Below the pieces are notes generated by a model that was given only the letters and a program-made list of their open reading frames with translations, was not told the origin of the DNA and searched no databases. The translations under genes were made by a program, and so were the position numbers. A DNA stretch of 64,000 nucleotides, from IMG/VR virus record IMGVR_UViG_3300044294_000233, one strand, 5' to 3'. The stretch comes from a virus. Lineage: Duplodnaviria; Heunggongvirae; Uroviricota; Caudoviricetes. Positions 1-24,000 of the stretch are shown here, piece by piece (position 1 is the stretch's first letter; each line of letters begins with the position of its first letter).

Positions 1-470
1 TGATTGTGGTCGGGATGTTATGGTACACGGTGATCGTAGTCGGGATGTTTGAAATAACCTCGATCACTGACGGAACGTCATCGGTCACCTCGATCACCGA
101 TGGGATGTCGTCGTACACGTCAATTGACGTGGGGATCTCAACGCCTTCTATGGTAATCACCGTGGGGATCACGCCCGCTTCGACCGTGATGACCGTTGGG
201 ATTACGCCGCCTTCGATCACAATGGCCGTGGGGATTTCCGGCCCGGTGATTGTGATCTCACTGGGTAGGTCTACGCCCCCGATGATTACGATCTCGCTCG
301 GAATGCTGATCGGCCCGAATTCGATCAGACTCGGAATGTTGATTGCCGGCTCGAACGTCACAATTGACGGAATGTCAATCGGCCCGATGGGACTGACGTT
401 GACGCACGGGATCACCAGAGGCGGGAATCCGATCTGTACCGTGGGCGGATTGATTTCGGGCAAGATCAAC
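1..470 (-). repeat. In-frame tandem DNA repeats of about 24 nt encoding the octapeptide repeats (V/I)IP(T/S)xIxV.
   Basis: The motif gatcac...ggggat recurs at 24-nt spacing. The translation reads ...GVIPTVITVEAGVIPTVITIEGVEIPTSIDVYDDIPSVIEVTDDVPSVIEV... Confidence 0.55.
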
Positions 471-5600: not shown

Positions 5601-6119
5601 ATGTCTAATTTCCTTAACGGTCAACTGGCATATTTGAGTGGTCCAATCGAACAGTGTTCCGCCAAAGCAAACTGGCGTCCCGAAGTCATCAAAACGCTCA
5701 CCGAACGCTACGGGATGAACGTCTTCGACCCTCACGCCGACCCCAAACAACAGTGGGCCGACGACTTGAAGAAGGCCCGTACCGAAAAAGACTACGCGAC
5801 GATGGCGAAGATCGCGCGTAAGTTCGTTCGCAAAGACCTTCAAGTGGTCCAGCGGTCTGACCTCGTCATCGCCTACCTGCCGTTCGGGGTTCCGACCACG
5901 GGCAGCCACCACGAGATCTTCCTCGCCAATCTACTCAAAAACCCCGTGCTGCTCGTCTGTCCGCAAGGCAAAGAGTATAATCCTCTGTGGTACTTTGGGT
6001 TCATCCCCGACGATCAGATGTTCGGGAGTTGGGACGAACTCTACCAGTACCTCGACAAAGTTCATAACGGCGAGATGAAGTACAACTACCGTTGGGACTT
6101 CATCTGCAACTTACTCTGA
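5601..6119 (+). CDS. Nucleoside 2-deoxyribosyltransferase-like protein (DNPH1/Rcl-like fold).
   Basis: AYLSGPIEQ at the N-terminus and TTGSHHEIFLANLLKNPVLLV match the family pattern YLAGP ... SxGTxxExGxAxxxxKP. Confidence 0.45.
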   Translation: MSNFLNGQLAYLSGPIEQCSAKANWRPEVIKTLTERYGMNVFDPHADPKQQWADDLKKARTEKDYATMAKIARKFVRKDLQVVQRSDLVIAYLPFGVPTTGSHHEIFLANLLKNPVLLVCPQGKEYNPLWYFGFIPDDQMFGSWDELYQYLDKVHNGEMKYNYRWDFICNLL

Positions 6120-6126
6120 GGCAGCA

Positions 6127-6747
6127 GTGTCAGACAAACCCTACTTCGGCGTGTGGCAGTATCTCGGCATCGTCAACGAAGGGACGCCGAAGGTTGCGGC
6201 CGAGGTGATGAACGTTTCCAACAAGAAAACGTGTACCGTCAACCACCGCCAGTTCGACAATATGGCGGTCGGCTCCTACTACACGCACGAAACGAAACAC
6301 TGGAAAGCGGTCCAGATCACCGAAGATCAAATTCCGGTCTTGCTCGAAGAACAACAACAAGCAATGGAAAAGATCGAGGCGGCTGCTCGGAAGAAGAAAG
6401 AAGACAACATCGCCACGGGGCGGTTCCAATACTTCTACACCGAGTACAACGGCGGCAAGGCCGAGAACATCATCGAGTTCCTCAGTGACAAAGTCGAGGA
6501 CTTCTGGAAGATCTTGGCCGACAACCTCAACAGCGGCCAACGCACTTGCGGACGCCCCCGTGAGAACCCGCTGACGGTCGATCAACTCAAGCAAGAAGAG
6601 AGAATGGTCAAGTTCATGTCGGTGGTGCAGCCGGGCGACAAGCTCGAATGGTACACTTGGAATGGCGGTTTCCTGGCGTTCTCTTCCGGCCCCTGCATTA
6701 CGCGGGACGGGGCGCAAATCGCCTACACGCCGTGGATGGCGTCCTAG
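6127..6747 (+). CDS. Hypothetical protein.
   Basis: Clean 206-aa ORF with balanced composition, immediately after the preceding gene. Confidence 0.45.
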   Translation: MSDKPYFGVWQYLGIVNEGTPKVAAEVMNVSNKKTCTVNHRQFDNMAVGSYYTHETKHWKAVQITEDQIPVLLEEQQQAMEKIEAAARKKKEDNIATGRFQYFYTEYNGGKAENIIEFLSDKVEDFWKILADNLNSGQRTCGRPRENPLTVDQLKQEERMVKFMSVVQPGDKLEWYTWNGGFLAFSSGPCITRDGAQIAYTPWMAS

Positions 6748-7202
6748 TATTCGTCTTCGGGCGTCCAGAGCCTCTTCTTCTGGATGTCTTCTGGCGAGAC
6801 GACGATGGCGGGTATTGTTTTGACGCCCGCCTTTTTGTACGCCCAGTACCTGTGATGCCCGTCAATGATCTGATATTTGAAACGCGAGTTCGGAACCCCT
6901 CCGACCGACAGCATTTTGTTCCCGTCCCACCTCGGATTTGACTTCCCCTTCAGTTTCACTTCGCGGACGTAAACCGGCGGCATCTTCTCGCCGGCCTTGA
7001 TGCCAGCAAGGATCTTCTGCATGTTTTCCCGGCTGGCCGGGAGGTCCATTTTGGAGGCCCGCTCGTAGTTTATGATGCTGTCGATGTCCAGCATTTGAAC
7101 AGGCTCGTCGGCGAACGTGTCGTCCACCATAGCGCCTTTCGACTGGGGGCTGGTATAGATCGTGACACGGGTCGTTTCGACCCACTGGGTGAACGTGAGC
7201 AT
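6744..7202 (-). CDS. ParB/Srx-like nuclease-domain protein.
   Basis: KYQIIDGHHRYWAYKKAGVKTIPAIVV matches the ParB N-terminal domain motif (DGxHR ... IP). Confidence 0.5.
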   Translation of the reverse strand: MLTFTQWVETTRVTIYTSPQSKGAMVDDTFADEPVQMLDIDSIINYERASKMDLPASRENMQKILAGIKAGEKMPPVYVREVKLKGKSNPRWDGNKMLSVGGVPNSRFKYQIIDGHHRYWAYKKAGVKTIPAIVVSPEDIQKKRLWTPEDEY

Positions 7203-7777: not shown

Positions 7778-8554
7778 TCAGGTGAGGGCAACGTCGAAAT
7801 CGACCCGGATCACATCGTCCAGAGTCAGCGGCGTCATGAGTACAAACTTGCCGGTCGTTTCGTCCCCGGTGAACCCCTGAAGTGTCCACGCTTCGGACAC
7901 CGTAGAGCCTGGGACGTACACATCGCCGTCGTCAAAAATCCTGACACCGTTGATCGCCACACGCAGACTGCCTGCGATGTAGTTCGGGTAGCCGATCTTA
8001 TAGTGCTGGAAGTCGGGCGTTCCGTCGTACTGCGGGGTGATCCCGTAGTAATGTTTGTGTGCCGAAGAGATCGGGAACGTCAGGTTGGCCTGAACCTTGT
8101 TCGGCGCGACCGTGTTCCACGTCACCCCGTCAGACGGGATGAATTCCACCGGCCCGGTGTCAAAACTGGTAATGACGGACGGCGTGTTGAATTCTAGCGT
8201 CATGTTGGTCGCCCCGTCAGCGATCAACGCCAATTTCTCACGCTCATCCAGCTTCATGCGGACGTATGCCACGGATTCGTAAGTCCCATCGGCGTGAGCG
8301 CCGATGTTGTGGAGCGTGCCGTCAACCGCCGAAACCCTCAAGCTGCCGTCGTCGTTCAAGCTCTGGCCGAGGCGTGCGCTGACCGTACCCTGACTTCCGA
8401 CCGCTTGTCGGAGAATGTCGGAGTTGATGTCAACGGCACTGTTGATCAACTGCATCCGCGTGATCAACGCCTTCAGCGGCAGGTTGTCGAAATCGACGTG
8501 GTACGGCTGGAGAGCTTGATACTGCGGTACTGGAATCAGGTCAATCTGTGGCAC
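7778..8554 (-). CDS. Hypothetical structural protein (fibre- or baseplate-associated?).
   Basis: 258-aa ORF rich in Thr, Gly and Asn and predicted beta-rich, lying inside the structural operon. Confidence 0.4.
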   Translation of the reverse strand: MPQIDLIPVPQYQALQPYHVDFDNLPLKALITRMQLINSAVDINSDILRQAVGSQGTVSARLGQSLNDDGSLRVSAVDGTLHNIGAHADGTYESVAYVRMKLDEREKLALIADGATNMTLEFNTPSVITSFDTGPVEFIPSDGVTWNTVAPNKVQANLTFPISSAHKHYYGITPQYDGTPDFQHYKIGYPNYIAGSLRVAINGVRIFDDGDVYVPGSTVSEAWTLQGFTGDETTGKFVLMTPLTLDDVIRVDFDVALT

Positions 8555-8591
8555 GGTCCTCCTCGGCGGGTTACTTTATCTACGGTTCAGA

Positions 8592-9104
8592 TCAGATTTT
8601 GGCGAGCAGACCGAGGTTGTAATAATCGAGTTCGATGAACTCTTTCCACGCCCCGCCCTCGCGGTCGTGGTAGCTCGCCCCTTTGTTCATCCACTGAAGC
8701 TCTGCCTCCTTGTGATCCCCGTAGTACCCAAGAAGTTCTTCGCCGGCCGGGATGTCCCTCGTGAACCTGTAAATCACTTGTCCCGCGTCGTTGCTTCTCC
8801 GTGCCAGCCCGCGAGCGAATTCGAGTTTGACATTCTGTTTCGCGGTGTCCGGGGTGTGATTTATCATCCCGCCGTAGCCCATCGGCACGATGTTGGCCTC
8901 TTGGTTGTCGTGACCGTTGAACTTGTATCTGGTCGCGTAGGCGGTACACTTGTCGGCGATGCCGCCTTTCTTGACGTAGACGCCGATCACCTCGATGTAG
9001 TCGCCCTTCTTCAGATCCACGGCGGCGAAACACCCCATGCCGGCGTTCTCAATTGTCGATGGCATCAACGCGAACCGCAGATCGGTTTCTTCTACGAAAT
9101 TCAT
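8592..9104 (-). CDS. SET-domain protein (putative protein lysine methyltransferase).
   Basis: NAGMGCFAAVDLKKGDYIEVIGVYV matches the SET N-terminal GxG/FA pattern. GYGGMINHTPDTAKQNV corresponds to NHSCxPN, and IPAGEELLGYYG to the GEEL...Y motif. Confidence 0.5.
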   Translation of the reverse strand: MNFVEETDLRFALMPSTIENAGMGCFAAVDLKKGDYIEVIGVYVKKGGIADKCTAYATRYKFNGHDNQEANIVPMGYGGMINHTPDTAKQNVKLEFARGLARRSNDAGQVIYRFTRDIPAGEELLGYYGDHKEAELQWMNKGASYHDREGGAWKEFIELDYYNLGLLAKI

Positions 9105-9379
9105 TGCTTCTTCTCCAGTTTGCCTTCGCGGATCGCAGCCACAAGCTCACTCAGTGTCACGGGGAAACCGAGGAACTCTTCGAGACAGTCGAGGAAGTGC
9201 TTTTGGATCTCGCCGTGCAGCGTCTTCTTGGCCTGTGGGTCGTCGCCACAGTACATGATCGCGCGGGAGAGGTCCGATTCACTCAGTTCGTAGTCGAAGG
9301 CTTCGTTGTCGAAGACCAGATACCGCTTCGGTTTGCCGTTTTCTTCAAGCTCTAGGGTGCTTACTTGCAAGGTACTCAC
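9101..9379 (-). CDS. Hypothetical acidic protein.
   Basis: 92-aa ORF with a 4-nt overlap with the SET gene. Confidence 0.35.
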   Translation of the reverse strand: MSTLQVSTLELEENGKPKRYLVFDNEAFDYELSESDLSRAIMYCGDDPQAKKTLHGEIQKHFLDCLEEFLGFPVTLSELVAAIREGKLEKKQ

Positions 9380-9764
9380 GATACTCCTTGTGTGCTTCCA
9401 GTAGTTCTTCTCTCGTCATCGTGTTCTGACGCAACACGCACAACATTTTGGTCATCAGGTAAGTGAAAGCCCGGTGTCTGGTCGTGTCTATGCAGGGGAG
9501 CGAACTAGCCGCTCTTTTCATTATTTCGCGATGATTTGCGATCTTTTCTTCCAGAGGAAGGTCCGGCTTCGCAAACTCAATAACGTTGCGAGCCATGATC
9601 GTCAAAATCACCGCGAGCTTGTCGCCCCACTCTTTTTTGTCTTCGGCTTTTTTCCATTTGTTGACGATCTCATCGATACCTTCGAGAGTACGTCTGTCGG
9701 CTTGCCTTTTCTGCTTTGCATAGCTGCGCTTCAACCAATCGTTCATTATGCTCCTGTAGCCCAA
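9345..9764 (-). CDS. Hypothetical protein at the edge of an AT-rich island.
   Basis: 139-aa ORF with lower GC than its surroundings. Its overlap with 9101..9379 suggests the true start may be further downstream. Confidence 0.35.
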   Translation of the reverse strand: MGYRSIMNDWLKRSYAKQKRQADRRTLEGIDEIVNKWKKAEDKKEWGDKLAVILTIMARNVIEFAKPDLPLEEKIANHREIMKRAASSLPCIDTTRHRAFTYLMTKMLCVLRQNTMTREELLEAHKEYREYLASKHPRA

Positions 9765-9943
9765 TCGACCGTAATGATACTTGGGATGTCAAGCTCGTCC
9801 ATTACGATCACACTAGGCACGTTTACTCCACAGACAATGATACTGGGGAATGTAATTTTGTTTATTTGCCCGATCACACTGGGGATGTATATGACATCCG
9901 CGTTGACCGGCAAATTATTTTCATTCTCTTTCTTGCATGTCAT
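9746..9943 (-). pseudogene. Fragment encoding IPSxI octapeptide repeats, related to the C-terminus of the fibre gene at 1..1264. It is probably a fibre-gene remnant.
   Basis: The translation VNVPSVIVMDELDIPSIITVDW resembles DDVPSVIEVISNIPTTITVYHN. The DNA repeats cgatcacact(g/a)gg(g/c)a match those at 1-470. The stretch is AT-rich and lies directly 3' of the homing endonuclease gene. Confidence 0.3.
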
Positions 9944-9954
9944 ACGAAGTTCAC

Positions 9955-10974
9955 CTATTTTGCGAACGTTTTTTTGTTTAACAATCTACTGATGCTCGAC
10001 TGTGATGTGCCGATAATGCTTGCGACCTCTTCTTGATCCTTACCTTCTGCCAGAAGCCTTAATGCTTGCGTTCTGTCTTCTGCGGTCATTTTTTTGTGTT
10101 GTCGCACCATCGGGTTTCCCAGATGTTTCCATCCTTGCCCAGAAGCGATGCGTGTCACACACGCTTCGGTCACACCAAATATGGCCGCGACTTCTTTACG
10201 AGAACGACCTATCTGCCTCAACCGAAAAATCTCCTGCGATTTCTCGTCGTTTAATTTAGACTTTCCGTGGTTGGCTCCCTTGTTGTCTTTCTTGACGTAC
10301 CCGGAGGTGTCCGTTTTGTAACCGAAGCAGTCCCACTTGATCTCTGGCCTTATAATGTCAATGAATTCAAAATACGCTTCACGGTTGACACGAAGTAAAA
10401 ACTGACTGCGGTCTTTTTTGACTCTCGACTTGACAGCCTTGATCGACAAGTCACGTTTCATTACTTCCGCCAGGAAAACAACCTCTTCTTCGGTAAAACC
10501 ATTGGTGCATAGTTTGGCTTGGGCGTCTCTAGCTTGATTGACCCCGTCATCCATGTACCATATCGCCATCGATAGCGGAGTCAGTTTGAGATCGTTAGGA
10601 ATGACCTTCCTGATTCTGCCGTTCACCAACTGAGGGGCATACCACTTCTTGCCCATTTCCGTCCAAATCAGATGATTGCAAGACTCATATCTCCAAGTCG
10701 GATATGGTTCACACTGCACTCGACCGATCTTGCCGTCGATAATTTTGGCTCGATGAGACTTCATAACAATTTTTGCACATCTGGACCAGCCTCCTAGCTC
10801 ATCTAAAAAAAACTGCATGTAGCTTTCTTTTGGAAAGTTTTTATGATCGGCAAAGCTCTGCTGAATCAGCCAATTCCAGTTAACAGGTTGACGGCTAAGA
10901 CAGCCATCGCCAAGCATACTTCCTATGAATATCTCATGCTGACGGGTAGTCAATTGCGGGTATAAATTCTTCAT
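9955..10974 (-). CDS. LAGLIDADG homing endonuclease with tandem C-terminal helix-turn-helix domains.
   Basis: Two LAGLIDADG-type motifs are present (IFIGSMLGDGCLS and MAIWYMDDGVNQ). The C-terminus has two sigma70 region-4-like HTH repeats (EIFRLRQIGRSRKEVAAIFGVTEACVTRI; ALRLLAEGKDQEEVASIIGTSQSSISRLL). GC is low relative to the flanks. Confidence 0.7.
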   Translation of the reverse strand: MKNLYPQLTTRQHEIFIGSMLGDGCLSRQPVNWNWLIQQSFADHKNFPKESYMQFFLDELGGWSRCAKIVMKSHRAKIIDGKIGRVQCEPYPTWRYESCNHLIWTEMGKKWYAPQLVNGRIRKVIPNDLKLTPLSMAIWYMDDGVNQARDAQAKLCTNGFTEEEVVFLAEVMKRDLSIKAVKSRVKKDRSQFLLRVNREAYFEFIDIIRPEIKWDCFGYKTDTSGYVKKDNKGANHGKSKLNDEKSQEIFRLRQIGRSRKEVAAIFGVTEACVTRIASGQGWKHLGNPMVRQHKKMTAEDRTQALRLLAEGKDQEEVASIIGTSQSSISRLLNKKTFAK

Positions 10975-11004
10975 GCAGGTATTATAGTATTTTCAAAAGC
11001 TATT

Positions 11005-11481
11005 TTAGACAAAATTAACCGACCAAGACCATGTGATCTGCATGGCGTCAGTCTTGTTGAGGTCTGGGAACGTCGCCAGACTGTACAAGTCGCCGCTGTT
11101 CATTACCAACGCCATTTCGTTCAGGGCGTACCCGTTGGCGTCGTTAAACGTCAACACGCTGGTAAACACGGCTTTGCTAGGGGTCGTCGGGTCCACGCTC
11201 GCCACGACGGGCTTACTCGCCCGCGTCAAACCGTAAAGGCCGTTCCTGTTCGTGTCAACGAACTTCGGAACGCCCCCGGACGTGCCGCCGTCGCCGAAAA
11301 TCATTCGGCTGACGTAGAAATTGAACCCGTCACTAAGGGAGTTGCTCAGGGCTGCGGCCAGAGCCGCCCGTCCCCGCCTCATGACGCTGTTGTTGAACCG
11401 CAAAGTGTCTTTGCGGCCGTCTTTGTATTCGATGACGGCTTCGACCCAACCGATACATTGCACTTGGTCTTCGGTTTTCAT
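11005..11481 (-). CDS. Hypothetical tail or baseplate-associated protein.
   Basis: 158-aa ORF with a 4-nt overlap with the upstream gpI-like gene. Confidence 0.4.
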   Translation of the reverse strand: MKTEDQVQCIGWVEAVIEYKDGRKDTLRFNNSVMRRGRAALAAALSNSLSDGFNFYVSRMIFGDGGTSGGVPKFVDTNRNGLYGLTRASKPVVASVDPTTPSKAVFTSVLTFNDANGYALNEMALVMNSGDLYSLATFPDLNKTDAMQITWSWSVNFV

Positions 11482-14400
11482 AGGCTCCCCTCTTCGACTG
11501 TTCCGTCCGCGTAATCAATGCGGAAGTTGATTTTCTCTTCTTGTTTCACAAAGTCAGAGAACCCCGGCTCTGGGGCGGCTGCCATGCTCATCGCCATCGG
11601 CGACATCGTCTCCGTGACGGAGGTGATCACTTCCGAGTTCCGCCGGTCGAGCCGCTGGAACGGCACGCCCGCCACAGTCACCGGAAGAGTTTCGTAGTTG
11701 TAAATCTCGAACGGCACGCTCGTCCCCCCGTTACCCAAAGTCGTCCAGTAGTGAATGTCACCGTCCAGGGTGATCGTAGTCCCGTCGATGTCGGCAATCG
11801 CAAAAGTCTCTTCATCCGCCCCGTTGACTGGGTCATTGATCACGACGATGAAGTTCTCTTTGAACTTGCTGTCTTCCAGCGGAACCAGTACCGGGTTTTG
11901 GCCGTTCGAGATGCCCAACGACGATTCGTAGTTGATCACCGTGTTCAGGCCGATACCCTGATAAGTAAGTAAGCCGTACCGCGTATCGATCAGCCGATCA
12001 TACAAAGCGATACTCTTTCCGCCCACCGAACCGCCCGACCAGCCGTTGATGTAAAACTGGTGTGTCTCGCCGTCCACCAATTCACTGACGACGTACTGGT
12101 CGCCGGTATCGTTGTAGTACAAAAAGTATTGCCCCGCGAGCGGCTGGATCATTACCCCGCGAACGTCGGTCAGCACCCCGTCCGTGACAGTTACCAGTCC
12201 GCGAAGCTCAACCGACAAATTCAAGGTGCCTGTGTGTGCCACGCTCGCGTCCGGGCGGATGATCGAATAGGCCACACCCGTCGCGTTCACGTTTGGCAGG
12301 GAAGGGTCTTGAGCGATCACGATCTCGCCTTCGGGCTTTATGTCTTGGATCGTGTACGGCGTGGCACTGTACGCCGTCATCTTGATCGTCCAGGCCGTCG
12401 TAGCGTACCCGTTGTCAACGTCCCACTGGCTCTTGACGCCCAGTTCTGCCAAGTCCCAAGTCGCGTCCTTCAACTTGTAGAAATTGTCGGTCACAATGGA
12501 GGTGTCGGAGTTTTCGTAAATGATGTTCGACAGGCTGAACGAGAAGGCCGACTGATTGATCGGCTCCGTCAATGGCGATGTCGGCGAGATTGGGCCGTAA
12601 ACTTCGACCGCGTGTCCGACCGCGTTGGTGACTTGGTAGTTACCGGCGTGCGGGTGCGGGCCGTAGATTTCTAGCACCGTTTCGGTCGGGTCGGTACTCA
12701 GGCCGGTGTTGCTGATCGGAACGTCCGGCGAGAACAACATGATCTGTCTGTTGTAGGCTGTGGCGGTTCCGCTCGCTACGAGCGTACTCGTAGCGAGGGT
12801 GTTTCTCAGAATTTGGTCGAGCGGCATGCCGCTCGGAATCATCGCGCGGTTGAAGACCATTTGATCGCTGCCGGCGATTACTGTCTCGCTCCCGCGATAG
12901 TAAATCAGGCACTCAATCGTCTCGACGGGCGGCTGAACGAAGTCCTCCATCGAGCCGCTGAAGTTGATGGTCTGGGGCAGGGCGTGAAACGGGACGAACT
13001 CCTTCAGGATGTCTTTGGCCTCGTTCACCCGGTCGTCGCAAAGGCGGTCAACTTCAATGTCGATGATGTACTTGCTGCCCAAGCACTGGCTGCACGGGTC
13101 AACGAAGTCCTTGTCCATGTCGCACGGTTCGAGACTGTCCCTAATCGAGCCGTTGTATTCGTCCATGTTATAGACGTTTTCGCTGTACGGGAACTCGGTC
13201 CTGATCTTACCGAACACCAAGAAGTCGTGGTACGGGTGCTTGTTGGGAATCAAGATCGAAAACAACGGGTCGTTCTCTTCGAGCAGTCGAACGTTCCAGT
13301 TTTTCGGCGGGTAGTCCTGAACCGTTTCGTCCCGCTGATCGGTCAACGGCAACAAACGAATGTAGTCCTCGATGTCCTGTTGCGTCGGGTTCGGGATCGC
13401 CGCGTACTGGTACAGCACTCGAAGGATGTCGCCGTTTTCGAGCGAGATGTTGTTCTCAATCGTTAGTGTGCTGACGCCGTCCGATGTGTTGATCGACACG
13501 TCTGATGGCAGGTAGTCCGTGTAGTACGAGTTGCCCGCCTTTCTGACGGACACTTCAAAGTTGTCTGAATCAATTGGTTGTGCGACACGGGACAGCACGA
13601 ACTCCATTTCGCCGCCGGCCGCTTTGAAGGTTTCCACCCATGTGTACGGCGAAATGATCTGCCAGCCGCGAACCAAGCTCGTCATCCTCATGCCGGCCAA
13701 ATCGAACGCCATCTCCAGCCCGGCGCGAGTTCCCTTCATCTTGTAAAGCGGCACCGCCAACTTGATCTGCTTCCGCCAACGGGTCGGGTCTTCGCTCCTC
13801 AGCTTCAGCCCGAACATCCGCCCCAGAAGGCCCAAGAACGCCTCGTCAGTCGAGTTGGCGTCCATGATGTCCAAGATCTGGTTGGCGAGATTCTCCAACA
13901 CCGTGAACCCCTGGCCGACCGATTTGTTGAATCTGGTCAGAACGGACGGGGTCACGTCGTCTTCGGAGAGCGTGGATTTGTACATCTCTGGGAGGTATGT
14001 GTCCAGCAGAGTTTGGTACTTTTCCGGCGGCGTGGCGTGGGTCGGGATGCTCGTGGTGATGGCGTTGTTGCCCATCAACGAGAAGGAAAGGTTTTGCGAA
14101 AGCGTTTCCCCGGCCGCGAGGGGCGTCCACGTCCAGCACGCGATGTAGTTGCCCTCTCGCATACCCACCGGGTTCCAAACGTATTGGAAGTGGCCGTATA
14201 CGGTGTTACCTTCCTCGTCAAGCGGTACGTTTTCGATGAGAGCGTTGGGTGTGTCGGTCGAGAGCCAAGCGGGATAAGACGAGTTGCCGATCACCGCAAC
14301 GGGGACGGCGTCGTTGTAATACACGGGTCGCGAAACCCTCATGGAGTCGGCCTGGGCGCGTAGTTTTCGCGCCTCAAGAATGTTCTCCTGAGTCGGGTCA

Positions 14401-14633
14401 AGGCACGCCGCGTTCTGTGCTTCGGTCGCCGCCCGCTCCGCGTCTTGGTTCCGGGTTTCAACGTCAAATTGCGTGACGTTGCCGCCTGAGAAGTCGCGTT
14501 CGATGTAGTAAATGGTCAGGTTGTTGACCATGTAGGGGTTCTGGAGCAAGCATTGGTCGGCGTCGGGGGTCAAGAAAGGAATGACCACCGTATCCGTAAC
14601 ACTCGGCACCTCATAGATTGTTTTCTCTGCCAT
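11478..14633 (-). CDS. Baseplate protein with a P2 gpI-like N-terminal region and a C-terminal extension of about 700 aa.
   Basis: FLGLLGRMFGLKLRSEDPTRWRKQIKLAVPLYKMKGTRAGLEMAFDLAG resembles the tail protein I family signature. It lies directly after the Baseplate_J-like gene, the same order as P2 W-J-I. Confidence 0.5.
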   Translation of the reverse strand: MAEKTIYEVPSVTDTVVIPFLTPDADQCLLQNPYMVNNLTIYYIERDFSGGNVTQFDVETRNQDAERAATEAQNAACLDPTQENILEARKLRAQADSMRVSRPVYYNDAVPVAVIGNSSYPAWLSTDTPNALIENVPLDEEGNTVYGHFQYVWNPVGMREGNYIACWTWTPLAAGETLSQNLSFSLMGNNAITTSIPTHATPPEKYQTLLDTYLPEMYKSTLSEDDVTPSVLTRFNKSVGQGFTVLENLANQILDIMDANSTDEAFLGLLGRMFGLKLRSEDPTRWRKQIKLAVPLYKMKGTRAGLEMAFDLAGMRMTSLVRGWQIISPYTWVETFKAAGGEMEFVLSRVAQPIDSDNFEVSVRKAGNSYYTDYLPSDVSINTSDGVSTLTIENNISLENGDILRVLYQYAAIPNPTQQDIEDYIRLLPLTDQRDETVQDYPPKNWNVRLLEENDPLFSILIPNKHPYHDFLVFGKIRTEFPYSENVYNMDEYNGSIRDSLEPCDMDKDFVDPCSQCLGSKYIIDIEVDRLCDDRVNEAKDILKEFVPFHALPQTINFSGSMEDFVQPPVETIECLIYYRGSETVIAGSDQMVFNRAMIPSGMPLDQILRNTLATSTLVASGTATAYNRQIMLFSPDVPISNTGLSTDPTETVLEIYGPHPHAGNYQVTNAVGHAVEVYGPISPTSPLTEPINQSAFSFSLSNIIYENSDTSIVTDNFYKLKDATWDLAELGVKSQWDVDNGYATTAWTIKMTAYSATPYTIQDIKPEGEIVIAQDPSLPNVNATGVAYSIIRPDASVAHTGTLNLSVELRGLVTVTDGVLTDVRGVMIQPLAGQYFLYYNDTGDQYVVSELVDGETHQFYINGWSGGSVGGKSIALYDRLIDTRYGLLTYQGIGLNTVINYESSLGISNGQNPVLVPLEDSKFKENFIVVINDPVNGADEETFAIADIDGTTITLDGDIHYWTTLGNGGTSVPFEIYNYETLPVTVAGVPFQRLDRRNSEVITSVTETMSPMAMSMAAAPEPGFSDFVKQEEKINFRIDYADGTVEEGSL

Positions 14634-14636
14634 GCC

Positions 14637-16199
14637 TCACTCGTATACAAATGTTACTGTGATCGTGTCCGGGCGGATGATCTGCTTGTAGTTGGCGGTC
14701 ACCAGAACGCCGCTGTTTTCGGGGTCGTTGGTCATGAAGTTCATTTCAAACCTGTTGACCTCGCGGATCGTTGACAACTGTTTGCCGAGGTCTTCTTGCC
14801 TGAGCGACTTGCCGTATTCCCAGTTCGGCAGCGAGAAGAAGGACGCGACTTTCTGCGTCACCATCGTCCGGTACTGGTCCTCGAACTTCTTGTAGAACTT
14901 GTTCATGACCACGTCGATTGACACATCGACCAGCAATATCGACCCGTCTTTGATGCAGACGAAGTCCGTGAACATCTGGACCTGTGAGATCGCGTCACCG
15001 AGTTCGGCTTTGAACTGACTCGAAGCGAGTTGCAGATCGTTCGCGGACGACGGCGTGGTCCCCCGAACCAGAACATAAAGGTCGATGACGTTGGCCGCGC
15101 ACCCCTGGTTCCTCAGAACCGCCGTCGATTTGCCCGTCTGCCCCTGGTACGGGGAGGCGAATTGGTCCGCGAACGTCTTGTAGTCCGAACCCGTCACGCA
15201 CCTGTTCTGAAGCGCCAACCAAGCCGGCAGCTTGCTGCGAACGTCATCAACCGTGTCGCCGTCGTACCCGAACTGGCCCTGCGTGTAGTTGCTGAGGCCG
15301 ACCGGGACGGAGTATTCAAAACCGGGTAGCGGCACGACGGTTTCCGACGTGATCGACTGTGTGACGATGTTACCTACCGTCCCGCCGCCCTTCCGGTATG
15401 TGACAACAATCTGTGATCCCTGCGACGGAATCAGGCCCGCCCGGTTGTTGCCGAAGATGATGAAAGCGTGCCAGAGGCTGTTGAACTCGACCCTGTACTC
15501 GCGCCGGGGTTGAGAGTCGGTGAACTGTTCCACCTGGGTCCACCTGACGCCGTCCACGTCCACGCGAATGCTGTCGAAAATCACCGGGAAGTAGCTGAGG
15601 GTATAGGTCTGCCCGACCAAGCCGGTTCCGGGGAACGTGTCGGTGTAAGTGAACCCCTCAAGACCCACCACGCTGTTGTTCACGACCGTACCGGCGGGGA
15701 TCAGAATGTCTTGGTCGTAGATCGGGTTCCCGTCAGCGTCGGCGGGGAAAAGCTCGATGCTGATGGACTCGTTTCCGGCCGTCACCGTCACGTCGAACGG
15801 GGCCGGGATGGTAACGTCTGCCAGCACCGGGTTGTTCAGTGTTGCCGACCACATCGACCGCGCCGCAATCGGCGGTTGCGGATTGAAGCCGACCAATTTG
15901 GCAAGTCTGAATGCGTTTTCGACCTCGGTGACGGTGTCGATGAAAACTTCGTTGGCGATTTGGTCGATCTTGAAGGACAAGGTGTCGGCAATGAACGCCC
16001 AGTTCTCGATCAACATGATCGCCAGCGACGACTCGACAAAGTCGTTGAAGTCGTTGGGGAAATTCGATTTGATGAAGTCGATCAGCCGCGACTTCATCGA
16101 CCAAAAGTCTTGGTTCGTGTAGTTCAGGTTGACGACGTTCGGAGCCGCCAGCGGGCCGGACTGTGAGAACGGTTCTACGTTGAAAGGGCATTCACTCAT
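14637..16199 (-). CDS. Baseplate J-like protein (P2 gpJ / T4 gp6 family).
   Basis: The N-terminus NYTNQDFWSMKSRLIDFIKSNFPNDFNDFVESSLAIMLIENWAFIADTLSFKIDQIANE has the Baseplate_J pattern. Its position follows the gp25-like gene. Confidence 0.65.
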   Translation of the reverse strand: MSECPFNVEPFSQSGPLAAPNVVNLNYTNQDFWSMKSRLIDFIKSNFPNDFNDFVESSLAIMLIENWAFIADTLSFKIDQIANEVFIDTVTEVENAFRLAKLVGFNPQPPIAARSMWSATLNNPVLADVTIPAPFDVTVTAGNESISIELFPADADGNPIYDQDILIPAGTVVNNSVVGLEGFTYTDTFPGTGLVGQTYTLSYFPVIFDSIRVDVDGVRWTQVEQFTDSQPRREYRVEFNSLWHAFIIFGNNRAGLIPSQGSQIVVTYRKGGGTVGNIVTQSITSETVVPLPGFEYSVPVGLSNYTQGQFGYDGDTVDDVRSKLPAWLALQNRCVTGSDYKTFADQFASPYQGQTGKSTAVLRNQGCAANVIDLYVLVRGTTPSSANDLQLASSQFKAELGDAISQVQMFTDFVCIKDGSILLVDVSIDVVMNKFYKKFEDQYRTMVTQKVASFFSLPNWEYGKSLRQEDLGKQLSTIREVNRFEMNFMTNDPENSGVLVTANYKQIIRPDTITVTFVYE

Positions 16200-16641: not shown

Positions 16642-18756
16642 TTAGCACGAAACGAACGGCGACATCATGAAGATCGACGCACACGGAGCCTTCGGGGAAC
16701 AGCTTCCGATGACGCGGTCACTGATCTTGATCTTGCCCTCGTGGTACACGAGGATCTGTGCCGGACACGGAGCCATCTCGCCGTTCTCGGACGGACAATC
16801 CTGACCGGCCAACAACAGGATCTGTTCCTTAGCCAAGAAGACGTGCATGCGGGCGAGGTTGATGTAAACCTGTTCCGTTGACACGACCTTGTTCTTGGAA
16901 ATGATGCCGATCTTGTTACTTGGATTCTTTTCCTTGTCGCCCACCATCTCGACGTGATCGTCGTAACTTATTGTAATGTAGTCGCCGCCGGCACGAAGCA
17001 TGATTTGACCCGGACCACTCGGAGCCTCTTGGAACCTCATGATGTGCGGGCCACGCTCGGTATTGTCCTTCTGCGGACAGAACATTTGCAGGGACTGGGC
17101 AACCGTATTCTCCTGCGAGTTGGTGTCCTCGATCTTGAACTCGATACCGTAACCCGACCGGATCTTGATGAACGCTTTCTTCGCCTTGTTGACCGGTTGG
17201 TTACCATCGCTTCGCGGGATCAAGTCTTGCTCGTTGTCCTCATCGATCATCATGAACAAGTGTTTGCTGGTCGAACGCATGCTGATGCCGCGACGGAAAC
17301 CGGCGATCCCGATCTCCTTCTCCATATCGTTGAGTTCGATGATGTTGCCTGCCTGCGACTCTAGACGGATGTAATTGTCTTCGCCCCTTTTGTTCGGCTC
17401 GTCTTGCTCGATGTCACTCATGATGAATTTGTGACCCGAACTGCTGAACAGTCCCATGTAACCGTTGAAAATGTTGTTGCACCCATAGTCGAACGGTCGT
17501 AGTGATCGTTCCCACACGCAATCGCCAGTCGGTTCTTCGACCGAGTCGTCCATGACCCATGTGTGGCCGCTGATAGACATCATCTGGATGCCGCTCTGGG
17601 GCAACATGGCGGTGTTGTTACGGTTGTTGCCCGGCCCGCGATACGGTCGGCACTCGTTTTCGTGTTTGAAAAAAGGGTTCGCGCCTATCTGTTGTTTTTG
17701 ATATTTGGTCGGTTTCCACGACGGGAAGTAAGGTGTGTCGGGATGACCGCCAACAATTTTTGCACTGCAAGCGGGGTTTGAAATTTTAGCTCCCTCTTTC
17801 GGCGTGTCGTCTTCCACTGACCCTTCGTCCGCACTGCCGAAATCGGCCCCGGAGTCAACGGGGTTTAAGTCCGGCAAGAAATCGCCGAGGCCGATTGCCC
17901 TGGTAATGTCGATGCCGGGTGCGGCACCTTCGATGCACGTCACGTCACCCGTTTTGACAACGCCGCCCGTGGTCGGGTGTGCGTATTGGCCGGCGTAGTG
18001 CAGGTGATCGTCTTTGAAGATCAGCCAGTTGCCGCAAGACGAGAGTATCTCAAGTCTTTTCCACCGGCGGTCACACGACGCATCGCCGTCAACCATTTTG
18101 AGCATGTGTTTTTCTGGCGTCTTGAACCCGTAAATGTGCGGGTAGGTCAACATCTTTTGGGCTTCCGGGTTCGCATCGAAGTCAACGATGCTATTAAGGT
18201 CGAACCCGTTTGAAGATTCGGTGTTCCACGGCGGCAAACACTGGCTCTCGTCGTTGGGTCCACACAGGTAGCCCTTGCGGTGACCCGACCACACCTTCTG
18301 GTACTCCGCGATGTCAATGGTCCATACATTGGCCCCTTCTGGTCCTCGGTTACGATGCCACGTTGTGCCAATGTAGAAAGGTGCGTTTCTCGCGCCGCCC
18401 TCGAAAATCAAACAGACGGTCGAGCCGGCTGGTGGCACCCACGAACAGCCGGAATCATCAAACCCGCCCATAGGCGAGATCGGCCACGCCCACGGCAGAC
18501 TTTTCATCGGGCTGTCGGGAGACTGGAACAAGGGGCAATAAAAACGGATGCGGTTCTGTTTCCAAACATCTTTGGTTTCAACACACAGGGCAGTGTACAT
18601 GCCAAACATTTGTTCTGATTGAGAAACAATGTGGGTACGGTCGTTCAAAGTCGTAGTTGCGACTTTAGCCATTTCGTATTGACTTGAAGAAAGAACAGCT
18701 TTAACTTTTTTTAGTTCTGTTTCTAGTTGTCGTATTTGGTCTGATAAATTTGTCAT
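16642..18756 (-). CDS. Baseplate central spike / hub-like protein of 704 aa (gpV/VgrG-like position).
   Basis: The call is positional (between the gp25-like gene and the hub candidate) and the protein is Cys-rich. The N-terminal coiled coil is encoded by AT-rich DNA. Confidence 0.4.
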   Translation of the reverse strand: MTNLSDQIRQLETELKKVKAVLSSSQYEMAKVATTTLNDRTHIVSQSEQMFGMYTALCVETKDVWKQNRIRFYCPLFQSPDSPMKSLPWAWPISPMGGFDDSGCSWVPPAGSTVCLIFEGGARNAPFYIGTTWHRNRGPEGANVWTIDIAEYQKVWSGHRKGYLCGPNDESQCLPPWNTESSNGFDLNSIVDFDANPEAQKMLTYPHIYGFKTPEKHMLKMVDGDASCDRRWKRLEILSSCGNWLIFKDDHLHYAGQYAHPTTGGVVKTGDVTCIEGAAPGIDITRAIGLGDFLPDLNPVDSGADFGSADEGSVEDDTPKEGAKISNPACSAKIVGGHPDTPYFPSWKPTKYQKQQIGANPFFKHENECRPYRGPGNNRNNTAMLPQSGIQMMSISGHTWVMDDSVEEPTGDCVWERSLRPFDYGCNNIFNGYMGLFSSSGHKFIMSDIEQDEPNKRGEDNYIRLESQAGNIIELNDMEKEIGIAGFRRGISMRSTSKHLFMMIDEDNEQDLIPRSDGNQPVNKAKKAFIKIRSGYGIEFKIEDTNSQENTVAQSLQMFCPQKDNTERGPHIMRFQEAPSGPGQIMLRAGGDYITISYDDHVEMVGDKEKNPSNKIGIISKNKVVSTEQVYINLARMHVFLAKEQILLLAGQDCPSENGEMAPCPAQILVYHEGKIKISDRVIGSCSPKAPCASIFMMSPFVSC

Positions 18757-20189
18757 TATTGTTCAGTCTTGTTTACATTCATACATTGTACTTTTAAGGT
18801 CGTAGTATAAGCTCCATCAGAAATTTGATGGTTAACACCTTTTATCATCCATTCTTTGTCTGAAAAAATTGGGTTACACATTGGCCCGGCGAGCCATTCG
18901 TGGTATGAACCACCTGAAAAAATTTGAAATGGATTTATTACGATTATCGAAACAACAGCATCGGCCCATCGCGATTGATGGACAAAGCTTGTGTCGCCAT
19001 GTATTTTTAACTCGGCTTCCATAGGCGCTTGCAGCTCTTTGTAGTGTGCCGCCGTTTCGTGTTCCGCCATAGCTTTTTGCATTTTTGGAGTAATTTGATC
19101 TGGCGACCGCCAATTGATGTCGTTTTGTGGTGCGGCGAATTGTGTTGTAGTACCAGCACCACGTTGAGTAGTGGTTATGTCCTTACAATTCCCGCTTCGT
19201 CTTTGTTCTATTGGCGGTCGTTGTTCTATATTCTTAGCAGATGTGGCACCTCCCAAGTTACCACCCGAATTAAGATCAGCAGTATATTGCCATTCTGCTT
19301 TTGGGTTAAAGCTAATTACAGGGCTGCAATCTCCTCCGTTTACAATGTAAGTTCCAGCACAAAAAAATCCATTAGACGTTTCGTCACAATATGGTCGCGA
19401 ATCTTCCATGAACCAAAGTTCTGGAACTGATGACCCAGAGTTCCAAATAGCATAAAATCCTTTATTACGGTCTGTCGTCAAGGAATTGAAAAATTTTCTC
19501 ATGGCCGAAATAGGATTTTGTTGATCTCCCTGCCAAACTCCCATTGGACCCTCTGGCCCGCCATCACTATTTTTGAATCTCCATTCAGTTAGATTTGGTC
19601 CATTTCGTCTTAAATATCTGATGTTATTGAGTGGTGGACAATTTCTTGACGCCATTTTTCTTACCGCCGGCATCAATCTAACTTTATTTGATTCTGTTCC
19701 AACAGGTACTTGCACGCGACTTTCTGCCATGTGGGTTAACATATCGGTTCCATTCAACGTGTATTTTATAACACCTCCTTCGTACACGCTTTCTATTTTT
19801 CCGGGTATGAAAAATATCGGCCCTTCAGGAATTCCGATTTTGGTTAAATTTCCATCTGTCGATCTGGAGATCCATCCAAAGTTAATTTCCATATTGTGAT
19901 CATCGGCGGCTTGACATAAATTTTTGTTAACTGCATTGAAATATCTCACAAAACTACCACCAGATTCATCAATTATTTCTACAGTACAGCCAGCACCAGT
20001 CGAGCCGCCAAATTCAAAAGATTTGATGCAGGCTGTGTTGGGTTCTCCTGGGAATGATTTGTTACCAACGGTGATAGTTCCACCCAATGTCATTGTCACA
20101 AATGGTGCGTAAACCGCGCCAGTGTTGGGCTTTATTTTTTGTAGATCACCACATTGATATTCTGGCAAACAAATTGCGTTACAAGACAT
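18756..20189 (-). CDS. Baseplate hub-like protein (Mu gpP / P2 gpD position), Cys-rich.
   Basis: 477-aa ORF with markedly lower GC than the rest of the operon. It lies between the LysM/gpX-like gene and the spike candidate. Confidence 0.35.
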   Translation of the reverse strand: MSCNAICLPEYQCGDLQKIKPNTGAVYAPFVTMTLGGTITVGNKSFPGEPNTACIKSFEFGGSTGAGCTVEIIDESGGSFVRYFNAVNKNLCQAADDHNMEINFGWISRSTDGNLTKIGIPEGPIFFIPGKIESVYEGGVIKYTLNGTDMLTHMAESRVQVPVGTESNKVRLMPAVRKMASRNCPPLNNIRYLRRNGPNLTEWRFKNSDGGPEGPMGVWQGDQQNPISAMRKFFNSLTTDRNKGFYAIWNSGSSVPELWFMEDSRPYCDETSNGFFCAGTYIVNGGDCSPVISFNPKAEWQYTADLNSGGNLGGATSAKNIEQRPPIEQRRSGNCKDITTTQRGAGTTTQFAAPQNDINWRSPDQITPKMQKAMAEHETAAHYKELQAPMEAELKIHGDTSFVHQSRWADAVVSIIVINPFQIFSGGSYHEWLAGPMCNPIFSDKEWMIKGVNHQISDGAYTTTLKVQCMNVNKTEQ

Positions 20190-20531: not shown

Positions 20532-21071
20532 TTACATGCCCAGGTTGACAATTCTTTCGGCCCCAGGCAAATTGTTGCTGCTATAAACGACCTCGAAGCT
20601 GAGATCGATGTCCATCTTAAATGGAGTAAGCTTGTCTTCATCCCACGCCACGTCGGTCGGGAATTTCACACTGTAACTTTTCAGAACCGCGTTCAAAGGC
20701 TGGTTCCCCACACTCAGAAGCTCCCCGCACTTCAACTGACAGATCAGCGGCGGCGCATACGGACCCGGTCCCGTGTTCCTCGGATAGACACAGGACTCCA
20801 GCTTCCTCATCAAGATCAAGTTGTCGTTGATGTCCTGCTTCGACACGACGAACAAGTGCATCGCCCAACTGATCGACCTGTTTTCCGAGTGGCTGAACGC
20901 CTTGATCGGGAACGAACGACCAATGATCGTCGTGTCAGGATAACTGGCGCTCTTGCCGTCGCTCAGTTCGGGCAAGTTGTTCATGAAGATCGGGCCGTAG
21001 CCGGGAATTGTGATGTAACAATTCCTGATAGGTTTCAGTCTGCACGAGCCTTTTTCCGTAGCTCTAGCCAT
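20532..21071 (-). CDS. Tail protein, immediately downstream of the tape-measure gene (gpU / DNA-circulation position).
   Basis: 179-aa ORF whose start overlaps the stop of the tape-measure gene. Confidence 0.35.
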   Translation of the reverse strand: MARATEKGSCRLKPIRNCYITIPGYGPIFMNNLPELSDGKSASYPDTTIIGRSFPIKAFSHSENRSISWAMHLFVVSKQDINDNLILMRKLESCVYPRNTGPGPYAPPLICQLKCGELLSVGNQPLNAVLKSYSVKFPTDVAWDEDKLTPFKMDIDLSFEVVYSSNNLPGAERIVNLGM

Positions 21072-24000
21072 TATCTGGTCCTTACCATGTTGGTGGCACC
21101 CTTACCTGCGGAACTGTTGAAGTCGCCAACGGGTGCGCGGTAGTAAGCAGCCGGCTTGTCGGGACGCGAATATGTATTCGTGTCCCCGCCCGGTGCCGTG
21201 TTGCTTCCAGAACGCGGCGTCATCAGCCGCAACATGGCCTGAAGCACGCTGAGGATCTCGTCGTTGGTCATCTTGTTCTCTTCAATCGCCTTCTGCAAGT
21301 TGCTGAAATCGACCGCGTTCTTGTTGCCACCGGCCGGCGGCTGAGAAGTCGCCTGATCTCTCATGATCGTCTTCTCAACGTCCAAGTTGGCCGCGCCCGT
21401 TGTCGAAGCGGTCTGTACCGGCTCAGGCGTACTCAATCCGGTCTTAGCGGCCGGGATGCTGACAGGAGCGCCGGCACCCGGCACGCCACCGCCAAGCGGC
21501 TTGTCTTTGGCCATTTGGCCGATTGACAACACGTTGCTCTGCAACTGTTTAACCGTCTCGATGAACTTTAAAGAGTCGGTCAACGCCTGATTCGTGTCGC
21601 CCGCCGCCTTGATCTTGGCCTGCACACCCATCAGAGTCGTCTTGACCTCTTCGTTGGTTCCGAAGTTGGTGGCGACCGCCTCGACCGTCTTCAACACCGA
21701 CACCATGAAGCTGTTGCCCGACGCGATCTTGGCCGTAATTTCTTTCTCAACGTCTTTGATGGCATTGAGTTGCGTCAGGTTGTTGGTGGTCTGCTTGATC
21801 ATGTTGACGGCGTTGTTCGCCATCGTGAAGATTTCCGCCAATTTCTTGGTGTAGTCTTCTGTTTCCTTCAGACCCGCCGCCATTTCATCCATGCGGACTT
21901 TCTGTCCGGCGATGGTTTCGAGCAACGCCTTGCCGCCGGCAAAGTCGAAGCCTTTACCGATGTTCTCTGCAATCCTCTGGACGGTCGGCACGAACTGCTT
22001 GCTCTGCGCGATCTTCTCGGAGATCTGGTTCTCGTAGAAGTCCAAATCACCGAACATCGACATGTACTCGCTGGTCTTCTGGATGTCACCGATGACACTG
22101 GACGACCGCTCGAACAGATCCTTGATGTCGTGGGTGTAGTTCTCGACAATTCGCAAAGCACTTTGCATCGATGTGATTTGTGGAGATTGTTGACCCATCA
22201 CATCAACCAAAGAATTAGTATCGTTCATGCCCATCGACTCGGCGTTCTGTTCCGCGAACGCACTCACGAACTCGGCTAAGTTGCCATTTTCAGGGTTGCC
22301 CAAACTCCCCATGTTCATAGACTGACTTAGATCAACAGAAGCCATAGCTTTAGCTGACGCGGCCATGCTTTCCATAGCCTGAGCCATCGTCTTGAACATT
22401 TCGTCCATCTTGGTGATGCGGGCAACGGCGTCGGTCATCTCGCTGTCTTTCGGCCATGTCTGCATCGGCTCCATCACGCCGCGACGGATGATGAAGCCCG
22501 CTTCCCACATGAACATGTCCATGTCGCGGTACGCGCCCCAAATGCCCGAACTCTTCATCATCTCGCGAGCGCCGGCCGTCGCCTCGCTCAAGCTCTGAAC
22601 GATTGACGGCAACTTTGATACGATCTCTGTCATCTTGTCGAGCTTGGCGATAGCGTCGTCCGCTTCTTTCTGTGGCGGGAATCCGGTCGTGATCGGCATC
22701 ACAATACCGAAGTTCAACATCGAGGCAACGTTATAGAACCATATCGTAAATCGTGTTACCTCGTTGCCCTCGATCTTGTTTTGATCTAACAGTGCCAAAC
22801 CTTCTTTAATCTTGGAGTACAGATCCTCCATGAACTTCGGCAATTTGGCAACGATCTGCGTCATTCCTTCAAGTCTTCCGCCCATGTCCTGAACTTCGTC
22901 CACGGTCGGGAACTGCGTCTTGATCGGAATCACCATACCTTCGGTCAGCAAGCGGGCTACGTTCGCGAACCATGTCGCGAACGTTTCGATTGCGTCCATC
23001 TTCATCCGCATTTTGCTGCTTTTCAGGATTTTCTGAATTCCACTGCCGAGAGTGTCAATCATGGTTCCGATGGCCGGAAGCATATCGGCCAGACCTTTCA
23101 TCACATTTGCAGCCATTTGAATGTAGCGTGGGTTTAACATAATGCCCTCGCCCTCGGCTTGGCCGGCACCGAATATAGGGCCAATAATACCATGTGATAT
23201 GAAACTTAAAATCGCCGTGAAGTTCTGCTGGAAACCTTGTTGCAACTTGGCTAACGTTTTCTGCAACTTATTCTTGCCGCTGAACCAGCCTTTGCTGCTC
23301 AGATCGGCAATTGGGCCATTCAGTGCGTCAATCACAGGTGGAATAGCAGGTAGCATTTCTGCCAGCCCCTTCATAATCTTACCGGCGGTTTGAACATCTC
23401 GTGGATTTAGTTTAGTGCCAAAAGCACCGGCACCGATACCAAATATCGGATCAATAATACCGTAAGAAATGAAATTCAAAATTGCCGCAAAACTTGAATG
23501 GAAACCGTCTTTTAGTTTATTCAGAGTTTTTTCTAATTTGTTACTGCCGTATCCAAACCAACTTTTTTTAGACAGATCGGCAATTGGGCCATTCAGTGCG
23601 TCAATCACAGGTGGAATAGCGGGTAGCATATCAGCCAGCCCCTTCATCACGTTCGCGGCCGTCTGAATGTCGCGAGGATTGAGTTTAACACCTGCGGCAC
23701 CGGGACCAATGCCAAAGATTGGATCAATAATGCCGTAAGAAATAAAACTCAAGATTGCTGCAAAGTTCTTACTGAAGAAACCTGTTGTTACCTTAAGAGC
23801 TTTTTCCATCTTGCTTGGCCCAACAAGACCCCACCAACGCGGTTCCATCAACGGTAATAATTCGTCGGTTAGTGACTTGATGACTGGCGGAATCGTACTA
23901 ATCGTCTTGGCAATCGCCTCGCAAATTTCACCAGCTTTTTTCACCCCTTCAATGTCAACTGATTCGGCGAACTTGGAAAGCATGTATGCCAAGAACTGGA

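Follow-up and report, generated by a model that had tools for sequence, protein, structure and literature searches.

A free-standing, probably active I-SceI-type LAGLIDADG homing endonuclease gene in the last codons of a conserved tail gene of a huge phage

What kind of gene has settled between the tail genes of a large virus, and how much of the DNA around it arrived with it? This question is raised by a 64,000-nucleotide stretch of viral DNA (IMG/VR record IMGVR_UViG_3300044294_000233, Caudoviricetes; hereafter the window), in which an open reading frame (ORF) of 339 codons with two LAGLIDADG motifs lies on the minus strand at 9955..10974. An earlier reading of the letters without database searches (the sequence-only reading) had described it as a free-standing homing endonuclease in the tail operon that was inserted into, or transferred together with, a segment of a fiber gene. 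We conclude that the ORF very likely encodes a free-standing, monomeric LAGLIDADG homing endonuclease of the I-SceI type, probably active and equipped with a C-terminal tandem helix-turn-helix (HTH) module, and that it belongs to a cassette inserted in the last codons of the conserved gene p158.

The family membership of the 339-aa protein and the conservation of its catalytic residues leave little to interpret. LAGLIDADG_2 (Pfam PF03161) matches the protein with 75.9 bits (cut-off 25, E=4.7e-21) over residues 14-200, which covers model positions 2-164 of 168 and both halves of the domain; the protein also matches PHROG 11023 and the PADLOC model HEase (E=9e-20). In a comparison of a profile of 18 homologues with the PDB, I-SceI was matched with E=1.6e-23 over the entire core (residues 29-226). 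The AlphaFold2 (AF2) model of the protein (mean predicted local distance difference test score, pLDDT, 84.9) retrieved I-SceI (E=4.8e-13) and I-WcaI as the best structures in Foldseek, with probability 1.0 and template modeling (TM) scores of 0.70-0.73, as obtained for a predicted model. Within the LAGLIDADG core (residues ~10-222), the acidic residue of motif 1 (SMLGDG; LGDGCL) is D23 (codon 10906..10908, minus strand), which aligns with D44 of I-SceI, and that of motif 2 (WYMDDG; YMDDGV) is D143 (codon 10546..10548, minus strand), which aligns with D145. In the alignment of the 18 family members, G22-D23-G24 is nearly invariant, and D143 and G144 as well as the lysines K123 and K220 are invariant. 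The lysines are the counterparts of I-SceI K122 and K223, the active-site lysines whose roles have been described (PMC3017599). I-SceI-like enzymes cut a long target site-specifically and leave 4-nt 3' overhangs; for the phage protein, cleavage activity and the identity of the target sequence would follow from this conservation and from the insertion site discussed below.

The core is followed by two tri-helical HTH domains, one at residues 238-273 (10156..10263, minus strand; Pfam HTH_7, E=5e-8; model helices 243-254, 259-266 and 270-278) and the other at residues 297-333 (9976..10086, minus strand; HTH_23, E=2e-8; model helices 298-309, 314-321 and 325-338). The sequence-only reading, which had recognized both the LAGLIDADG motifs and the two repeats, was right about their number and loosely right in likening them to sigma70 region 4, given that Sigma70_r4_2 scores slightly under its cut-off on this ORF. 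Weak fold matches point to the bipartite Tc3/Pax type, and in a sister clade both HTH domains are located N-terminally, not C-terminally. We propose that these domains extend target recognition.

The gene is embedded in a tail and baseplate operon, as anticipated. Six co-oriented ORFs on the minus strand follow one another in the order p158, the 339-aa ORF, p65, p133, p92 and a SET-domain protein, and the surrounding genes encode baseplate and tail components (Phage_base_V, a gp25-like protein, a baseplate wedge protein and a Tail_P2_I-like protein of 1051 aa). The host of the insertion, p158 (11005..11481, minus strand; PHROG 5417), resembles the N-terminal part of tail-collar fibers (Pfam Phage_tail_fib, E=3e-4, below the cut-off) and follows the 1051-aa baseplate gene in all relatives. 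Because no Rfam family was matched in the window, p158 has a stop codon of its own and the endonuclease has its own ATG, the gene resides in neither an intron nor an intein. Both contexts had been considered and were rejected; the endonuclease ATG lies 30 nt downstream of the p158 stop. Contigs of up to 476 kb carry the exact endonuclease protein, the IMG/VR relatives are contigs of 320-340 kb, and the most distant relative found is an uncultured phage of 595 kb (LR756511.1), whereas megablast of 8500-12000 against reference phages found nothing; hence the window derives from a huge phage without a close reference genome.

The way in which the cassette is built became apparent from closer relatives that lack the endonuclease and that were found by searching with p133. 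In the three of them (loci L026, L023 and L024), p158 is followed by the p65 homologue and then by p133 onward; this comparison with island-less genomes, which the sequence-only reading had called for, defines the insertion site and reveals a presence/absence polymorphism. In blastn, window 13436..11023 corresponds to L026 3..2416 and window 9954..9315 to L026 2420..3059, so that the 1068-nt insert (window 11022..9955) takes the place of 3 nt in L026. At the empty site, the sequence is ...ACA TGG TCT TGG AGC GTG AAC TTC GTA TGA CA..., with the ATG of the next gene overlapping the p158 stop (GTATGA); in L026 this junction, which contains ACATGGTCTTGGAGCGTGAACTTCGTATGACAAGC, lies at ~2390-2450. 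In the window, p158 ends with ...TGG TCG GTT AAT TTT GTC TAA, followed by a 30-nt spacer, the endonuclease ORF (which ends with TAG) and GTGAACTTCGT ATG ACA. The last five codons of p158 (154-158) with the stop, TCG GTT AAT TTT GTC TAA (11005..11022, minus strand), are part of the cassette: compared with AGC GTG AAC TTC GTA TGA of the endonuclease-less alleles, 8 of the 18 nt differ, all of them synonymously, and the preceding 27 nt are identical to L026. The ancestral 3' end of p158, GTGAACTTCGTATGA, is retained at the right edge of the insert (9940..9954, minus strand; identical to L026 2420-2434), where it does not code for p158 and supplies the start codon and the upstream region of p65.

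A second carrier allele, L027, whose endonuclease is 68% identical, has the same layout, with the recoded tail TCA GTC AAT TTC GTC TAA and a second copy, AGCGTGAACTTTGTCTAA, retained after its endonuclease. The recoded form TCN/AAT/GTC/TAA is common to the window and L027, and the ancestral form is found in all three endonuclease-less alleles; the last 30 nt are identical among these three, even though they differ elsewhere. This intact 30-nt junction, the presumed target, does not occur in the window even if 3 mismatches are allowed. A population scan with a degenerate junction pattern that covers both allele types recovered one metagenome contig, that of L024, and no viral contig.

The cassette leaves both neighbors intact: it brings its own synonymous copy of p158 codons 154-158 with the stop, and the original p158 end stays downstream and continues to supply the p65 start region. 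In the mechanism that we propose, the cassette would spread during mixed infections. There the enzyme would cut an endonuclease-less genome at its uninterrupted p158/p65 junction, and repair off the carrier genome would copy the cassette in, sometimes together with flanking DNA; the carrier itself would be immune because no intact junction remains in it.

In the comparison of the window with L026, the number of synonymous substitutions per synonymous site (dS) is 1.17 for p158, 0.13 for p65 and 0.26 for p133. The two sequences are 72-88% identical left of the site and 89-94% identical right of it. Relative to L023, dS is uniform (1.1-1.6). Because dS relative to L026 drops exactly at the insertion point, the site coincides with an apparent mosaic boundary, compatible with recombination there and with, though no proof of, preferential passage of the cassette and its flanks to endonuclease-less genomes, as seen in one comparison in which 640 nt lie right of the site. 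Nuclease genes at the boundaries of genetic exchange have been reported for other phages (ICP1; PMC10448857). The module exchange suggested by the sequence-only reading is thus retained as far as the divergence step goes, but that step does not involve a fiber module.

Among the relatives, the endonuclease gene is present in L016, L027 and L029, as it is in the window, absent from L023, L024 and L026, and decayed in L020. In L020-L022, whose flanking proteins are 65-74% identical, all that remains after p158 is a spacer box, CTATAATA, together with the final 56 aa of the endonuclease, the part that holds the second HTH domain (L020 4082-4249). In these three loci, a different LAGLIDADG gene, which is 33% identical and encodes 270 aa with one HTH, is inserted in the first codons of p258, the gene on the other side of the slot that opens after p158; here the ancestral GTGCCACAGATTGA lies upstream as a duplicate, and the inserted ORF overlaps at its end with a recoded start. 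In L017-L019, homologues that are 37-39% identical stand alone between p158 and p258, in the same slot, and p158 and p258 are separated by 18-24 nt in L005, L007 and L008. The decay, the second insertion and the same-slot homologues mark the p158/p258 junction as a hot spot of long standing for these endonucleases. Within the same 12 kb, L020 has a third LAGLIDADG gene as well as a GIY-YIG gene, so that endonuclease genes are densely clustered around its tail genes (5937-6813, 8674-9444 and 11327-11965).

The 30-nt spacer (10975..11004, minus strand) travels with the endonuclease and contains the box CTATAATA at 10980-10987, which ends 6 nt before the endonuclease ATG, a spacing shared with L027. 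Neither this octamer nor TATAATA occurs anywhere else in the window, and a CTATA(A/T)A box is found upstream of every homologue examined (L027, L017, L018, L019 and L020) and of the L020 remnant. Because it is unique in the window, the box is not the general late promoter of the phage; it may nevertheless act as a promoter, in which case the transcript would be leaderless or nearly so.

An intact-looking gene in such a position might, however, be an inactive selfish gene that has been fixed in the lineage and is heading for decay, with neither function nor mobility. The homing cycle predicts degeneration after fixation, L020 displays it at this very site, the window contains a second, decayed endonuclease (an HNH fragment at 1277-1399), and no Shine-Dalgarno sequence precedes the ATG. 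On the other hand, the ORF is of full length, with all the catalytic residues and both HTH domains, and in the comparison of the window with the L027 copy the proportion of nonsynonymous differences (pN, 0.22) is well below that of synonymous differences (pS, 0.81, saturated). For the adjacent p158 codons of the same pair, the number of nonsynonymous substitutions per nonsynonymous site (dN) is 0.017 and dS is 0.96; the endonuclease is therefore under purifying selection, yet more diverged than p158. Furthermore, endonuclease-less targets still circulate in related phages, so that selection for homing can persist. We consider a dead gene unlikely.

The HNH fragment is a 41-aa peptide (VHHEDGDWFNNEPYNLKFICPNCH...) on the minus strand that has no start codon and lies between the stop of a 754-aa PKD protein (1412) and the start of the fiber gene, within ~130 nt that are missing from the close relative L023. 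It has no Pfam match and was identified through L001, where a full-length HNH gene (218 aa, 14290-14946) has a C-terminus that is 61% identical to it; the fragment looks like a second homing endonuclease gene in the window that has decayed.

Less probable still is a domesticated LAGLIDADG-HTH protein, a WhiA-like regulator that binds DNA without cutting it and controls the nearby tail or accessory genes. WhiA combines a LAGLIDADG fold with a C-terminal HTH and is among the fold matches (3hyi, E=2e-6), one source labels the protein a 'predicted transcriptional regulator', homologues occupy the same slot in distant relatives, and the protein is under purifying selection. However, the acidic and basic residues of the active site are missing from WhiA (PMC3384342), whereas all four are conserved in the present family, and the best sequence and fold matches are the active enzymes I-SceI and I-WcaI, with scores far above those of WhiA. 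Absence from the closest relatives and decay in another one fit a selfish gene, not a regulator that is needed, and the GC content at third codon positions (GC3) is 0.515 in the endonuclease against 0.74-0.76 in the flanking genes; in low-GC relatives, the composition of the endonuclease homologues is near that of their hosts. Taken together, the selection, the foreign GC3 and the intact catalytic residues favor a mobile gene that is active, or was so recently, over a regulator or a dead relic.

Several points weigh against the active mobile endonuclease and are reflected in our assessment. The target is read from the insertion site, and cleavage is a prediction. The same-slot homologues in deeply diverged relatives could also reflect long vertical retention. 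The synonymous sites of p158 are already ~59% diverged between these genomes, which makes changes in 6 of 6 codons only mildly unusual (~0.04); a per-nucleotide binomial test on the recoded tail (P ~1e-3) was downgraded as overstated on the same ground. The recoded tail is thus weaker evidence for immunity than it appears, also because the loss of the start-codon overlap relaxes the constraint on that copy. Expression is uncertain, given that the ATG, like that in L027, lacks a Shine-Dalgarno sequence. A sigma-70 scan did not call the CTATAATA box, for want of a -35 element. Finally, the divergence step comes from a single relative, L026, with its 640 nt to the right of the site.

The extent of the insert also settles which of the neighboring genes are residents. 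GC content is 0.42-0.50 over ~9300-11000 and 0.55-0.60 on both flanks, with 0.448 in the 1068-nt insert itself; the drop noted in the sequence-only reading is real, but the single AT-rich island is not. The stretch is a composite of the insert and two resident genes, p65 and p133, the homologues of which in endonuclease-less relatives are also of low GC (0.46-0.48). The first of these, p65 (9746..9943, minus strand), lies outside the mobile insert and encodes four (I/V/F)PSxI units of ~11 aa (as [IVF]PSx[IV], with a period of 10-12 aa or 30-36 nt), not octapeptides as had been suggested. This motif occurs 26 times in the six frames of the window, with 12 occurrences in the fiber C-terminus (1-400, minus strand), 4 in p65 and 10 singletons. 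The two proteins are alike at the level of the peptide repeat (blastp, 41% identity over 44 aa, 25 bits). At the DNA level, for which shared repeat units had been claimed, the similarity is weak: the best blastn match between p65 and 1-1264 is 48 nt at 77% (E of 0.03 for the region alone and 1.5 for the window), which is at chance level, and the p65 ORF contains GATCAC twice and GGGGAT once.

Homologues of p65 (73-75 aa) are found directly after p158 in the endonuclease-less relatives (88% identical in L026, 53% in L023 and L024), the sequence is again homologous to L026 from 9954 on, which is 11 nt before p65 starts, and amino-acid changes in p65 are fewer than silent ones (dN/dS of 0.42 relative to L026; pN of 0.30 and pS of 0.83 relative to L023). 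In L020, p65 is replaced by an unrelated 80-aa ORF, and the homologues of p133, p92 and the SET-domain gene stayed although the endonuclease decayed. Given this resident pattern, the idea that the endonuclease was inserted into or arrived with a piece of a fiber gene, with p65 as its remnant and 9345-10995 as one foreign island, is barely credible, despite the repeat type that p65 shares with the fiber C-terminus and the low GC that p65 and p133 share with the endonuclease.

At least 12 copies of the ~11-aa repeat, (I/V)P(S/T)xI, lie at the C-terminal end of a PKD-containing fiber protein that runs off the window; the repeat belongs to no Pfam or PHROG family. A 116-aa protein in L006 (9199) is similar at its C-terminus (IMIDWGTPP vs ITVDWATGA) and has an IPxxI repeat of a related kind.

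The second resident gene, p133 (9345..9746, minus strand), has an ATG that overlaps the p65 stop (TAATG) and is preceded by AGGAG, which makes it a more likely start than the TTG of the listed 139-aa form; homologues of p133 occupy the same position in the endonuclease-less relatives, and dN/dS relative to L026 is 0.18. No direct match to p133 was found in Pfam, PHROG or the PDB, and its AF2 model (pLDDT 56.7) is too poor for a structure search. In hhalign, p133 matches ORF1 of L006 (probability 97.6, E=4e-12), which in turn matches PHROG 234, 'late sigma transcription factor' (E=9e-8). Because of this two-step homology, p133 is probably a diverged relative or paralogue of the T4 gp55-type late sigma factors, located in the variable slot of the baseplate and tail operon. 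Scans of IMG/VR with p65 and p133 found no relatives.

The remaining genes of the slot are p92 (9101-9379, minus strand) and the gene for the 170-aa SET-domain protein (8592-9104, minus strand; Pfam SET, E=3.6e-7), which is part of the same accessory cassette, is kept in L020 and L023 and is absent in more distant relatives. For p65, p133, p92 and the SET-domain protein, PADLOC returned no defense-system matches. All the small ORFs that occupy the variable slot from p158 to p258 start with M-(K/S)-N-(Y/F/I/D)-W-(L/I)-(D/E/K)-(K/R)-K, and the remainders of these proteins are unrelated (gp55-like, IPS-repeat and other). The loci are window 9746 (minus strand), L006 8444, 8790, 8939 and 9199, L001 7758, L020 4739, and L023 7774 and 8001, and the motif was not found elsewhere in the window or in these loci. 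This N-terminal peptide may serve in targeting or assembly, or may mark a recombination joint for the shuffling of cassettes.

Elsewhere in the window, a nucleoside 2-deoxyribosyltransferase-like protein (5601-6119, plus strand) and a ParB-N-like protein (6744-7202, minus strand) are encoded amid tail-fiber genes and kept in relatives (gene tables of L016 and L023). There are two further low-GC stretches (0.42-0.48): that at 18000-20000 contains a 477-aa ORF (18756-20189, minus strand) that has no Pfam or PHROG match and adjoins the baseplate spike gene, and that at 23000-24000 lies inside a 2599-aa ORF (21071-28870).

Beyond this locus, we put forward a broader picture tentatively, as a possibility about which we remain rather doubtful. 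I-SceI-type LAGLIDADG enzymes with a fused, paired-domain-like tandem HTH may form an uncharacterized clade that circulates among huge phages and inserts into the first or last codons of conserved baseplate and tail genes, with recoded codons that would keep the host gene whole and immunize the carrier. Pairs of such insertions (at the p158 end and, as in L020, the p258 start) might bracket the accessory cassette between them (gp55-like sigma paralogue, IPS-repeat protein and SET-domain protein) and mobilize it between phages, with the HTH module being C-terminal here and N-terminal in the sister clade.

The value of the locus lies in the availability of carrier, empty-site and decayed alleles at base-pair resolution. 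It shows an endonuclease entering two overlapping genes and breaking neither, with the overlap duplicated and a recoded gene end carried along. It also adds to the view that nuclease genes mark the boundaries of exchange, here in a lineage of huge phages (contigs of 320-595 kb). With a predicted target of 20-30 bp, the enzyme lends itself to direct testing, and it could offer a scaffold of naturally extended specificity for genome engineering. The LAGLIDADG-HTH architecture resembles a state from which WhiA-type regulators could have arisen.

Among the known systems, I-SceI and I-WcaI of yeast mitochondria (PF03161) are the closest by family; both are monomeric LAGLIDADG homing endonucleases encoded in introns. 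The phage protein belongs with them by profile over the full core (the E=1.6e-23 match) and has the same four active-site positions (D, D, K, K). It differs in sequence (~22% identity) and in setting, in that the ORF is not in an intron, has its own start and stop, leaves the host gene intact and is found in a huge phage, not an organelle; in addition, it has ~115 C-terminal residues that form the two HTH domains. A LAGLIDADG enzyme with intact catalytic residues and an added HTH was not encountered among the PDB sequence and fold matches or in the literature examined.

Free-standing LAGLIDADG genes of phages are already annotated, and in one survey at least 8 of 20 phage LAGLIDADG genes were located in inteins (PMC10448857). 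The closest in the reference phage collection are the free-standing genes of Acinetobacter phages such as XC1 and vB_Ab_02_KEN_02 (PHROG 11023), the only ones, and distant ones, found by tblastn of the endonuclease against reference phages; the match, with 24-25% identity, spans the core (59% of the query) and does not reach into the HTH region. WhiA (DUF199), in which a LAGLIDADG fold is likewise followed by an HTH, is degenerate in its active site, has one HTH instead of two and is conserved on the chromosomes of Gram-positive bacteria, whereas the present gene is sporadic in phages.

In its way of life, the gene most resembles the free-standing endonucleases seg and mob of T4 and those of ICP1, which are known for intronless homing. 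Like these, it lies between conserved essential genes, is polymorphic among relatives, is associated with a divergence step at its site and can occur in clusters of several endonuclease genes (L020). Its nuclease domain and its DNA-binding HTH module occupy opposite ends of the protein, as is general among phage endonucleases (PMC10448857). Unlike the T4 and ICP1 enzymes, which are of the GIY-YIG, HNH or T5orf172 type, this one is an I-SceI-type LAGLIDADG enzyme, and its cassette visibly replaces the terminal codons of the neighboring gene.

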